Source: a virus
Virus record (IMG/VR): IMGVR_UViG_3300028840_006907
Coordinates: 405,618 to 469,617 of that record
DNA length: 64,000 nt
Strand: one strand, 5' to 3'
Positions 34,276 to 35,112 of this stretch are shown piece by piece. The position numbers and the translations under genes were made by a program. The notes beneath the pieces were generated by a model. That model did no database searches, was not told the DNA's origin, and saw only the letters and a list, made by a program, of their open reading frames with translations. Position 1 is the stretch's first letter. Every line of letters starts with the position of its first letter.

Positions 34276-35112
34276 ATGTCTGAAAAATTTACATATTTCT
34301 GGAGTGGCCCATTTTCACAGTGGCACCCATCTCCTTTTGTTATAGAAGGTATTCAATATAACTGTGCTGAACAGTACATGATGGCTATGAAAGCTTTATT
34401 GTTTAATGATGCTGAAAGATATCAGATGATAATGAGTGCAGTGGATCCTTCTGATCAAAAGCGTTATGGAAGAAAAGTAGAAGGTTTTAATGAGGATGTA
34501 TGGAAAAAATACGCTAAAAAGATTGTTTATGACGGAAGCATGGCTAAGTATACCCAGAATGAGGATCTTAAGAAATTATTATTGGCCACAAAAGGAACAA
34601 CACTAGTTGAAGCTAGTCCTCATGACCGGTTATGGGGTATTGGACTTAGTGAGAATGATCCTTTGGCAAAAAGTAGAGCTACGTGGAAAGGTTTGAACTG
34701 GCTTGGAGAAATACTTACGGAAGTAAGAGATAAATTAGATATGGTTCAACGGAGAAATAATACTATGAACAATGAAAATAGGAGAAATAATACTATGAAC
34801 AATGAAAATAAGAGAAATAATACTATGAACAATGAAAATATTGGAACTATTTATCTGAATATCCAGATGAAAAGTAAATTTGCTGATAAGATATTGGAAC
34901 TTGCTCATAAAGATCTTCCTTCAGAGTATCAAATAGGAGGTATAACAAAACAACATCAAATAGTAAATGCTATGGGAAATATCCTTAGTGATTTAATGAT
35001 TGAGGAAGATATAGTAAAAGCAAATGAATTTGGTGGTATAGAGGATCCTTCATTTGAACAGATATCAATAAATGGATTATATATTGATTTATATAATCCT
35101 TCAAATAAATGA
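34276..35112 (+). CDS. NADAR (YbiA-like) domain protein with C-terminal extension (278 aa)
   Basis: FYFWSGPFSQWHPSPF, IEGIQYNCAEQYMMAMKA, ASPHDRLWGIGL, WKGLNWLGEILTEVR match the NADAR fold signature as I recall it. Confidence 0.8.
   Translation: MSEKFTYFWSGPFSQWHPSPFVIEGIQYNCAEQYMMAMKALLFNDAERYQMIMSAVDPSDQKRYGRKVEGFNEDVWKKYAKKIVYDGSMAKYTQNEDLKKLLLATKGTTLVEASPHDRLWGIGLSENDPLAKSRATWKGLNWLGEILTEVRDKLDMVQRRNNTMNNENRRNNTMNNENKRNNTMNNENIGTIYLNIQMKSKFADKILELAHKDLPSEYQIGGITKQHQIVNAMGNILSDLMIEEDIVKANEFGGIEDPSFEQISINGLYIDLYNPSNK
34751..34840 (+). repeat. perfect tandem repeat, 3 x 30 bp, in frame inside the NADAR gene (encodes RRNNTMNNEN x3)
   Basis: Read directly: ggagaaataatactatgaacaatgaaaata at 34751, 34781 and 34811 (third copy begins with a). 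Confidence 0.9.

Follow-up and report, generated by a model that had tools for sequence, protein, structure and literature searches.

Why would a huge phage carry a NADAR enzyme domain, and what is the extension that follows it in the same polypeptide? The question is raised by a gene at positions 34276..35112 (+ strand) of the 64,000-nucleotide stretch of DNA analysed here (the window; positions 405,618 to 469,617 of the IMG/VR virus record IMGVR_UViG_3300028840_006907), the source of which is a huge uncultivated phage of about 470 kb. The open reading frame (ORF) runs from ATG to TGA and encodes 278 amino acids (ORF list, translation), exactly where the initial annotation, made from the letters alone, had placed a NADAR-domain protein. 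We lean, with some caution, towards a two-module protein in which an intact NADAR of the YbiA type serves as an orphan counter-defence enzyme and has been joined by gene fusion to a separate acidic module. Phage orphan NADARs are known as a class; what is unusual is the fusion partner and the recent triplication of the junction. The parts of the gene are as follows:

34276..35112, + strand: complete ORF (NADAR domain, repeat linker and C-terminal module), 278 amino acids plus stop, from the ORF list and translation
34276..34749, + strand: NADAR catalytic domain, amino acids 1-158 (Pfam match amino acids 11-154), from Pfam, NCBIfam, PHROG, PDB sequence matches, AlphaFold2 and Foldseek
34751..34840, + strand: 30-bp repeats, three in tandem (GGAGAAATAATACTATGAACAATGAAAATA; copy 3 begins AGAG), from Tandem Repeats Finder and a pattern search
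34840..35109, + strand: C-terminal acidic module, amino acids 189-278, an orphan small-protein family, with an isoelectric point (pI) of 4.6 and a net charge of about -6

NADAR domain and conserved active site

The N-terminal part of the protein belongs to the NADAR family. Amino acids 11-154 matched the Pfam NADAR profile PF08719 (E 1.5e-51; 175.3 bits against a gathering score of 35.1; model positions 11-162/163), and matches were also obtained with NCBIfam TIGR02464 (159.4 bits, cut-off 73.7) and phrog_1017 of PHROG (E 4e-50). The N-terminal NADAR assignment of the initial annotation, together with the Pfam profile comparison that it had proposed, was thus borne out. Its signature motifs IQYNCAEQYMMAMKA, PHDRLWGIGL and WKGLNWLGEIL are present exactly, whereas its first motif had been mis-transcribed and actually reads FTYFWSGPFSQWHPSPF, not the string beginning FYFWSG. 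The nearest solved structures by sequence were the Phytophthora nicotianae (Pn) NADAR in complex with ADP-ribose (8bau, E 1.1e-16), followed by E. coli YbiA (2b3w, E 1.5e-7). An AlphaFold2 model built from 64 relatives had a predicted local distance difference test score (pLDDT) of about 98 over amino acids 1-160, and Foldseek returned just the same two structures for it (8bau, E 2.3e-10; 2b3w, E 6.9e-8), with a probability of 1.0 and target-normalised template-modelling scores of 0.71-0.76.

The residues of PnNADAR that contact ADP-ribose or take part in catalysis, as listed by Schuller et al. (PMC11543638), were mapped onto the phage protein through the HMMER alignment. All 13 positions could be mapped, with 10 identical, two conservatively replaced and one lost:

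PnNADAR E43, phage E32: identical
PnNADAR K50, phage K39: identical
PnNADAR K75, phage K62: identical
PnNADAR G78, phage G65: identical
PnNADAR R79, phage R66: identical
PnNADAR V81, phage V68: identical
PnNADAR Y84, phage F71: conservative
PnNADAR D86, phage E73: conservative
PnNADAR W89, phage W76: identical
PnNADAR R93, phage A80: lost
PnNADAR E125, phage E112: identical
PnNADAR D130, phage D117: identical
PnNADAR W133, phage W120: identical

Loss of the catalytic residues would have spoken against the assignment, and E32, K39 and E112 are all kept on alignment to the Phytophthora enzyme; E32, K39, E112 and D117 are furthermore invariant across the 64 aligned relatives. The phage protein therefore shares with the 8bau and 2b3w NADARs the fold, the catalytic Glu/Lys/Glu triad and 10 of the 13 ADP-ribose contacts, and its catalytic domain is likewise without a partner toxin (within the window). 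It differs from them in being encoded by a huge phage, in having Ala at Pn R93, in lacking a LexA or riboflavin operon context, and in carrying a 120-amino-acid C-terminal linker and acidic module, both of which are absent from 8bau and 2b3w.

Subfamily assignment and relationship to known NADARs

At the position of Pn E125, Glu is the signature of the YbiA subfamily, while T4-type phage NADARs have His and DarT1-linked NADARs have Asp (PMC11543638). The phage protein has E112 aligned to Pn E125 and scores above the cut-off of TIGR02464, as members of the YbiA/COG3236 subfamily do. Membership of the T4 type (AdfN/gp30.3) was rejected, as PF08010 reached 21.4 bits against a 36-bit cut-off and the residue at the Pn E125 position is Glu, not His. 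Because of this glutamate and the sub-threshold PF08010 score, the protein is placed in the YbiA/COG3236 type and is neither AdfN-type nor a DarG1, and its sequence marks it as a bona fide and apparently active NADAR. The DS32_2 NADAR family anti-phage protein (NF053876) was also rejected, with 42.4 bits against a cut-off of 240.

DarG1 (Schuller et al. 2023, PMC11543638) has the NADAR fold in common with the phage protein, and its E88, K95 and K115 are equivalent to E32, K39 and K62. The Lys at the K115 position is thus present, whereas the acidic residue at the D171 position is Glu (E112), as in NADARs that are not linked to DarT. An identity as DarG1 by virtue of an adjacent DarT1 was rejected as well: the neighbours are a 65-amino-acid zinc ribbon protein and a protein resembling major vault protein (MVP), and no ADP-ribosyltransferase (ART) domain was found in the approximately 60 Pfam-scanned ORFs of the window, which cover 64 kb of the genome of about 470 kb and are the scope of all neighbour-domain negatives reported here.

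Comparable, too, are AdfN (T4 gp30.3), NADAR-Bas32 and NADAR-Bas60 (PMC11257639), which are likewise orphan NADARs of large phages with the catalytic Glu and Lys conserved and no adjacent toxin gene. The phage protein differs from these three in not being of the T4 type and in its extra C-terminal module; the mechanism to be expected is the removal of ADP-ribose from guanine in DNA. The NADAR of phage W70 (Vequintavirinae) is only 37% identical to it.

Thousands of metagenomic NADARs, 156-165 amino acids long, share 60-71% identity with the NADAR domain. Homologues 30-57% identical to it occur in 707 GenBank phage genomes, for the most part from large myoviruses and jumbo phages; GTP cyclohydrolase II is a frequent mis-annotation among them. 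Two Branchiostoma (amphioxus) proteins with tandem NADAR domains (P0002 and P0003, 53% identity) were top-scoring after the self-match. Their high total scores are due to the duplication of the domain, and the single-domain metagenomic NADARs are closer per residue (60-71%).

Membership of this subfamily brings with it the possibility of a metabolic damage-control enzyme, a riboflavin-intermediate N-glycosidase with no anti-defence role; this is the main rival reading, and we regard it as improbable. The name of TIGR02464, ‘riboflavin biosynthesis intermediates N-glycosidase’, points in that direction, with 159 bits being well over the 73.7 cut-off, as do the YbiA-subfamily glutamate E112 and the JGI label ‘ribA/ribD-fused uncharacterized protein’ carried by many close relatives. 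However, YbiA itself hydrolyses guanine- and cytidine-linked ADP-ribose (PMC11125620, PMC12945103), so the family name leaves the substrate unsettled. The ADP-ribose phosphate and adenine contacts, for which a riboflavin intermediate would have no use, are conserved save one, while the occurrence of homologues in 707 phage genomes, mostly of large myoviruses, fits a role in conflict better than vitamin housekeeping. No riboflavin association was seen either: the protein has no RibA/RibD fusion, and the scanned ORFs contain no riboflavin or GTP cyclohydrolase gene and no domain of the pathway.

Genomic context of an orphan NADAR

The window derives from a tailed phage, as the initial annotation had implied in speaking of a phage copy: Pfam searches identified a baseplate J-like protein, a baseplate-wedge component, PolA, a DnaB-like helicase and a primase zinc finger, and also an SNF2 helicase and a sigma-like factor. 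It has no close relative among GenBank phages, with PolA at most 31% identical to GenBank phage proteins and no megablast match to GenBank phages for the 10-kb NADAR neighbourhood. The NADAR gene sits in a run of genes on the same strand. Upstream lie an AAA ATPase, two proteins of unknown function, two paralogous exported-looking proteins and the zinc ribbon protein, and downstream lie the MVP homologue, a DUF5662 protein and an endonuclease VII/HNH protein; this strand also carries the replication genes (SNF2, DnaB, primase zinc finger, PolA, AAA).

None of the scanned ORFs contains an ADP-ribosyltransferase, macro, Nudix, SLOG or riboflavin-pathway domain, and there is no RNA-ligase partner near the NADAR gene. 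PADLOC detected no DarT or DarG (no DarG model at E ≤ 0.01), the only match of the NADAR being the candidate-system NADAR model PDC-M42C. With no ART, macro, Nudix or SLOG domain and no DarT or DarG there, the NADAR is an orphan within the 64 kb inspected. Among the loci that were compared, only L001, which is from the same phage, has the neighbours of this NADAR in common. Synteny with other huge phages was rejected, as no similarity could be detected between the AAA gene of the window and the 529-amino-acid AAA gene of locus L004, which lies near the related huge-phage NADAR P0026.

A proposed counter-defence role for the NADAR domain

The initial annotation had mentioned reports that NADARs hydrolyse ADP-ribosylation of guanine, and several subfamilies including YbiA do so in vitro (PMC11543638, PMC11125620); guanine-linked ADP-ribose was hydrolysed by a DarT1-linked NADAR, a sigma70-linked NADAR, YbiA and T4 gp30.3, which were all of the subtypes tested (PMC11125620). 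YbiA-type NADARs also remove the ADP-ribose that pierisin-like toxins attach to cytidine (PMC12945103), and a myxobacterial YbiA-like protein is the antitoxin of an ART that is not a DarT (PMC11125620). In phages, three unrelated NADARs (AdfN, which is T4 gp30.3, NADAR-Bas32 and NADAR-Bas60) restore plating on DarTG1 hosts (PMC11257639; Johannesman, Carlson & LeRoux), and the Bas32 and Bas60 NADARs rescue phages and also neutralise DarT1 (PMC11257639). The earlier suggestion of a plausible counter-defence gene agrees, as a hypothesis, with these phage NADARs that neutralise DarTG1 (PMC11257639). Counter-defence is the mainstream expectation for a phage NADAR and is supported as a hypothesis; the idea is no discovery, since phage NADARs have already been published as anti-DarTG1 ‘orphan antitoxins’.

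From these comparisons we infer an enzymatic activity, a substrate and a role in counter-defence. The domain would be an N-glycohydrolase in which the ADP-ribose moiety is held by K39, R66, W76, D117 and W120, while E32 and E112 flank the distal ribose; the N-glycosidic bond between ribose and base would be cleaved and free ADP-ribose released. Its likeliest job in infection would be to erase the marks that a host ART toxin leaves on guanine, and possibly cytosine, of the replicating phage DNA, restoring the unmodified base. Candidate host toxins are DarT1-like, pierisin/ScARP-like or YarT-like, and the phage NADAR would act as an ‘orphan antitoxin’ in the manner of AdfN, NADAR-Bas32 and NADAR-Bas60.

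Several points weigh against such a role, or against parts of it. Rescue of cells from DarT1 was seen only with the DarT1-linked NADAR and, in part, with the sigma70-linked enzyme (PMC11125620), and the E. coli YbiA-type enzyme and T4 gp30.3 gave cells no protection from DarT1 despite their activity in vitro (PMC11125620). LeRoux and colleagues view YbiA-like NADARs as housekeeping proteins, and the YbiA/COG3236 subfamily is also credited with the riboflavin-intermediate N-glycosidase role. In the phage protein itself, the Asp used by DarT1-linked NADARs at the key position is Glu, and a phosphate-contacting arginine (Pn R93) has become Ala (A80). As the inspection covered 64 kb of a genome of about 470 kb, an ART partner or riboflavin genes might be encoded in the rest of it, and for the C-terminal module described below any role is a guess.

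The target might also be something other than ADP-ribosylated DNA, namely soluble immune signals or toxins derived from ADP-ribose (cyclic ADP-ribose variants), or ADP-ribosylated RNA or RNA ends; we consider this unlikely. An intact ADP-ribose pocket would suit any ADP-ribose N-glycoside. Iyer et al. (PMC9503650) gave contextual arguments for phage NADAR, Macro and SLOG domains acting on ADP-ribose-derived signals, and ADP-ribosylation of RNA is known, as are enzymes reversing it (PMC11833690). Yet the biochemical tests of NADARs to date all gave base-linked ADP-ribose on nucleic acid as the substrate (PMC11257639, PMC11125620, PMC11543638, PMC12945103), and no SLOG, Macro, Nudix or RNA-ligase partner is nearby.

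The phage protein is another orphan NADAR among many in large phages and so supports the view of nucleic-acid ADP-ribosylation reversal as a common phage counter-defence. It raises the question of whether YbiA-type NADARs, sometimes dismissed as housekeeping, act as anti-defence enzymes in phages.

The C-terminal acidic module

The extension that follows the NADAR domain comprises 120 amino acids (159-278). It gave no Pfam, PHROG, NCBIfam or PDB sequence match, and for amino acids 189-278 the comparisons with Pfam and PDB sequences stayed empty up to E 10. The description of the C-terminal approximately 120 amino acids as an unrelated extension containing the 30-bp repeats is in keeping with this, and can be sharpened to a linker followed by a module that exists as an independent small protein. 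When 1.84 billion representative proteins were searched exhaustively with HMMER, the module had only two true relatives, P0121 (90 amino acids, E 3.4e-13) and P0122 (81 amino acids, E 1e-12), and a profile search added P0124 (87 amino acids). All three are stand-alone small proteins on short metagenomic contigs, none of them beside a NADAR, and they align from amino acids 189-195 onward with 40-45% identity over about 80 amino acids and 20 invariant columns. The four members of the family are all acidic (pI 4.4-4.6, net charge -6 to -8). A cadherin-repeat protein of 1006 amino acids (P0123, E 3.6e-5) was dismissed as a relative, its score being a summed repeat artefact. Word-index searches and scans of viral, metagenome and genome contigs with the module profile found no more members. 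Neither the window nor the surroundings of the NADAR genes in 43 related loci contain a further copy of the module, and no relative with both genes separate and adjacent was found there.

That the extension is a non-functional read-through (a lost NADAR stop codon and a junk tail), or the ORF an assembly artefact, is very improbable. The repeat is very recent, the tail has a GC content of 28% against 37% for the NADAR part, and the structure prediction for it is weak, all of which would fit a read-through. Against this, three independent proteins share 40-45% identity with the tail over about 80 amino acids, and 20 alignment columns are invariant, which indicates a conserved coding module kept in frame. 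An identical 278-amino-acid protein was, moreover, recorded from several independent assemblies, on contigs of up to 469,617 bp, which makes the ORF real and not an assembly artefact of the window.

The module was modelled as two helices and short strands, with a pLDDT of 69.5 in the best model and 46-53 in the other four; with a model of only moderate confidence and uninformative relatives, any role proposed for it is a guess. We infer that it is an accessory part for protein binding or targeting and not a second catalytic domain. Differing and mutually unrelated N- or C-terminal extensions occur in several further proteins of the NADAR clade (P0008/P0015, P0090/P0105, P0007, P0096, P0026 and P0077/P0119), so that the addition of small accessory modules to NADAR appears to be a recurring theme. 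The extension of P0026, encoded on a 512-kb contig, is N-terminal with a CxxC...CxxC pattern; homology of the 65-aa zinc ribbon protein of the window to this extension was rejected (BLASTP E 0.17).

An arrangement of comparable outline is found in DarG of DarTG2, in which, on the account of Deep et al. 2023 given in PMC11257639, a macrodomain hydrolase is followed by a C-terminal domain that binds DarT as a mimic of single-stranded DNA. The likeness is analogous only, an enzyme that removes ADP-ribose followed by an acidic C-terminal domain; the catalytic folds are unrelated (macro versus NADAR), and no sequence or fold similarity was detected between the C-terminal modules. The idea that the phage module might bind a toxin comes from this citation, where the C-terminal domain of DarG sequesters DarT. 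By this analogy the protein might be a bipartite antitoxin mimic, its NADAR domain erasing ADP-ribose from DNA while the acidic module binds and blocks the ART toxin or some other protein of the defence, perhaps by mimicking a nucleic acid; the module would be a free-standing anti-defence protein elsewhere, and perhaps would also be translated alone here from the Shine-Dalgarno-like motifs and ATG codons of the repeats. We regard this proposal as a long shot. If true, it would mean a new family of small anti-defence proteins and a counter-defence gene fusion caught just after forming. More generally, so rare an acidic module may be a sign that ADP-ribose erasers have a new kind of partner, for targeting or for binding toxins. 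Neither the role of the module nor the question about YbiA-type NADARs alters current understanding unless confirmed experimentally.

The triplicated junction and a probable history of gene fusion

The 30-bp repeats reported in the initial annotation are real. Tandem Repeats Finder gave 3.0 copies at 34751..34840 with 89 of the 90 bases identical, and a pattern search found no further copy in the window, where the chance expectation is zero; exact DNA-pattern scans found no variants in repeat number. The only other tandem repeat of the window, at 39735..39804 (period 34, 2.1 copies, 78% matches), lies within a helix-turn-helix (HTH) gene. The units encode (R/K)RNNTMNNEN three times (amino acids 159-188). 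NADAR-domain relatives mostly end 6-10 residues past WLGExLTxVR (mode 8), which corresponds to amino acids 157-161 here, and the repeats start at amino acid 159; the array ends where the stand-alone module homologues begin. In the full-length AlphaFold2 model, the linker continues the last helix of the NADAR domain (142-211), with a pLDDT of 95-89 to about amino acid 180 and about 66 thereafter. The 30 amino acids would on this model form a rigid helical spacer, a weak prediction because the region has no homologues in the alignment.

The simplest history that the sequence suggests is a fusion of two formerly separate genes, in which loss of a gene boundary joined the module to the NADAR domain and a very recent triplication of the junction followed. 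On this history the near-perfect triplicated junction would illustrate cleanly how a gene fusion of very recent date looks.

Each 30-bp unit contains GGAG (AGAG in copy 3), 10 nucleotides and then an in-frame ATG (M164, M174 and M184). Two products might therefore be made, the 278-amino-acid fusion and a free acidic protein of 95-115 amino acids started at M164, M174 or M184, with the repeat being the triplicated initiation region of a former downstream gene; this is doubtful, and would be compatible with the NADAR-module fusion favoured above. The Shine-Dalgarno-like GGAG or AGAG, its spacing and the ATG resemble the real ribosome-binding sites of the window, where the starts at 26512 and 35187 carry GGAG at -13. 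The NADAR part stops where stand-alone NADARs stop, and the stand-alone homologues of the module begin 5-11 residues past M184. With such a motif and M184 five codons before the start of the homologues, the repeat unit may be a relic, or a still active copy, of the initiation region of the downstream gene. However, the GGAG of the repeats, at -14, is one base beyond any GGAG at a real start in the window, and the copy nearest to the module has the weakened AGAG. In an AT-rich and purine-rich coding sequence such motifs are also fairly likely by chance, and a relative with the two genes separate and adjacent was not found in the 43 related loci.

Flanking signals and neighbouring genes

Two further features flank the ORF:

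34265..34268, + strand: AGGA, Shine-Dalgarno-like, starting 11 nucleotides before the ATG, from a survey of the upstream regions of window genes
35112..35141, + strand: 13-bp A/T-rich hairpin, its first base being the final one of the NADAR stop codon, in the 74-bp spacer that separates this gene from the MVP gene, from RNA folding

In the upstream survey, the majority of window genes had AGGA, GGAG or GAGG beginning 8-15 nucleotides before the start codon. The hairpin has a folding energy of -9.9 kcal/mol (z -5.2; none of 200 shuffles equally stable) and no U-tract after it, and it was not called by the terminator consensus scan. Scans for sigma-70 promoters and terminators around the NADAR gene gave nothing above chance.

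The gene directly 3′ of the NADAR gene (35187..37628, + strand) encodes an 813-amino-acid homologue of the eukaryotic major vault protein, with Pfam matches to MVP_shoulder (1.4e-23) and Vault_3 (3e-11) and a weak SPFH match. Its amino acids 450-704 match the rat and human MVP structures (E about 3e-17), and its C-terminal part is long and coiled-coil-like. The sole report of viral MVPs found in a literature search was a 2023 preprint on two gut phages (10.1101/2023.11.10.566534). Adjoining the NADAR gene upstream, the 65-amino-acid protein (34057..34254, + strand) has two CxxC pairs that form a zinc ribbon and matches phrog_2834 (E 4e-13). Just upstream of the NADAR locus are tandem paralogues (32779..33438 and 33469..34038, + strand; 219 and 189 amino acids, 73% identical) with hydrophobic N-termini resembling those of signal peptides or lipoproteins, both matching phrog_24725 (function unknown); the pair is a recent duplication. 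The AAA ATPase (30093..31682, + strand, 529 amino acids) matches phrog_8638 (E 9e-82) and the IetA models that PADLOC has for the Ietsat defence system (E 2.9e-24), with a weak match to TRIP13.

In the family-A DNA polymerase (22473..26261, + strand, 1262 amino acids), a LAGLIDADG_3 domain at amino acids 812-877, which follows the first portion of the polymerase domain, suggests an intein or an inserted homing endonuclease. Further along the window are a sigma-70 region 2/GerE-like protein (26512..27273, + strand), an XRE-type HTH protein (39635..40012, + strand), a DUF4423 protein (44246..45076, + strand; E 1.3e-24) and the DUF5662 protein (37628..38080, + strand; E 6e-36), which has His-rich motifs. 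Unusual auxiliary genes encode a chitin-synthase-like GT2 glycosyltransferase (52001..53182, - strand; E 1.6e-31), a second GT2 glycosyltransferase (27709..28512, + strand) and a MaoC-like dehydratase (53637..54056, - strand; E 5.7e-16).

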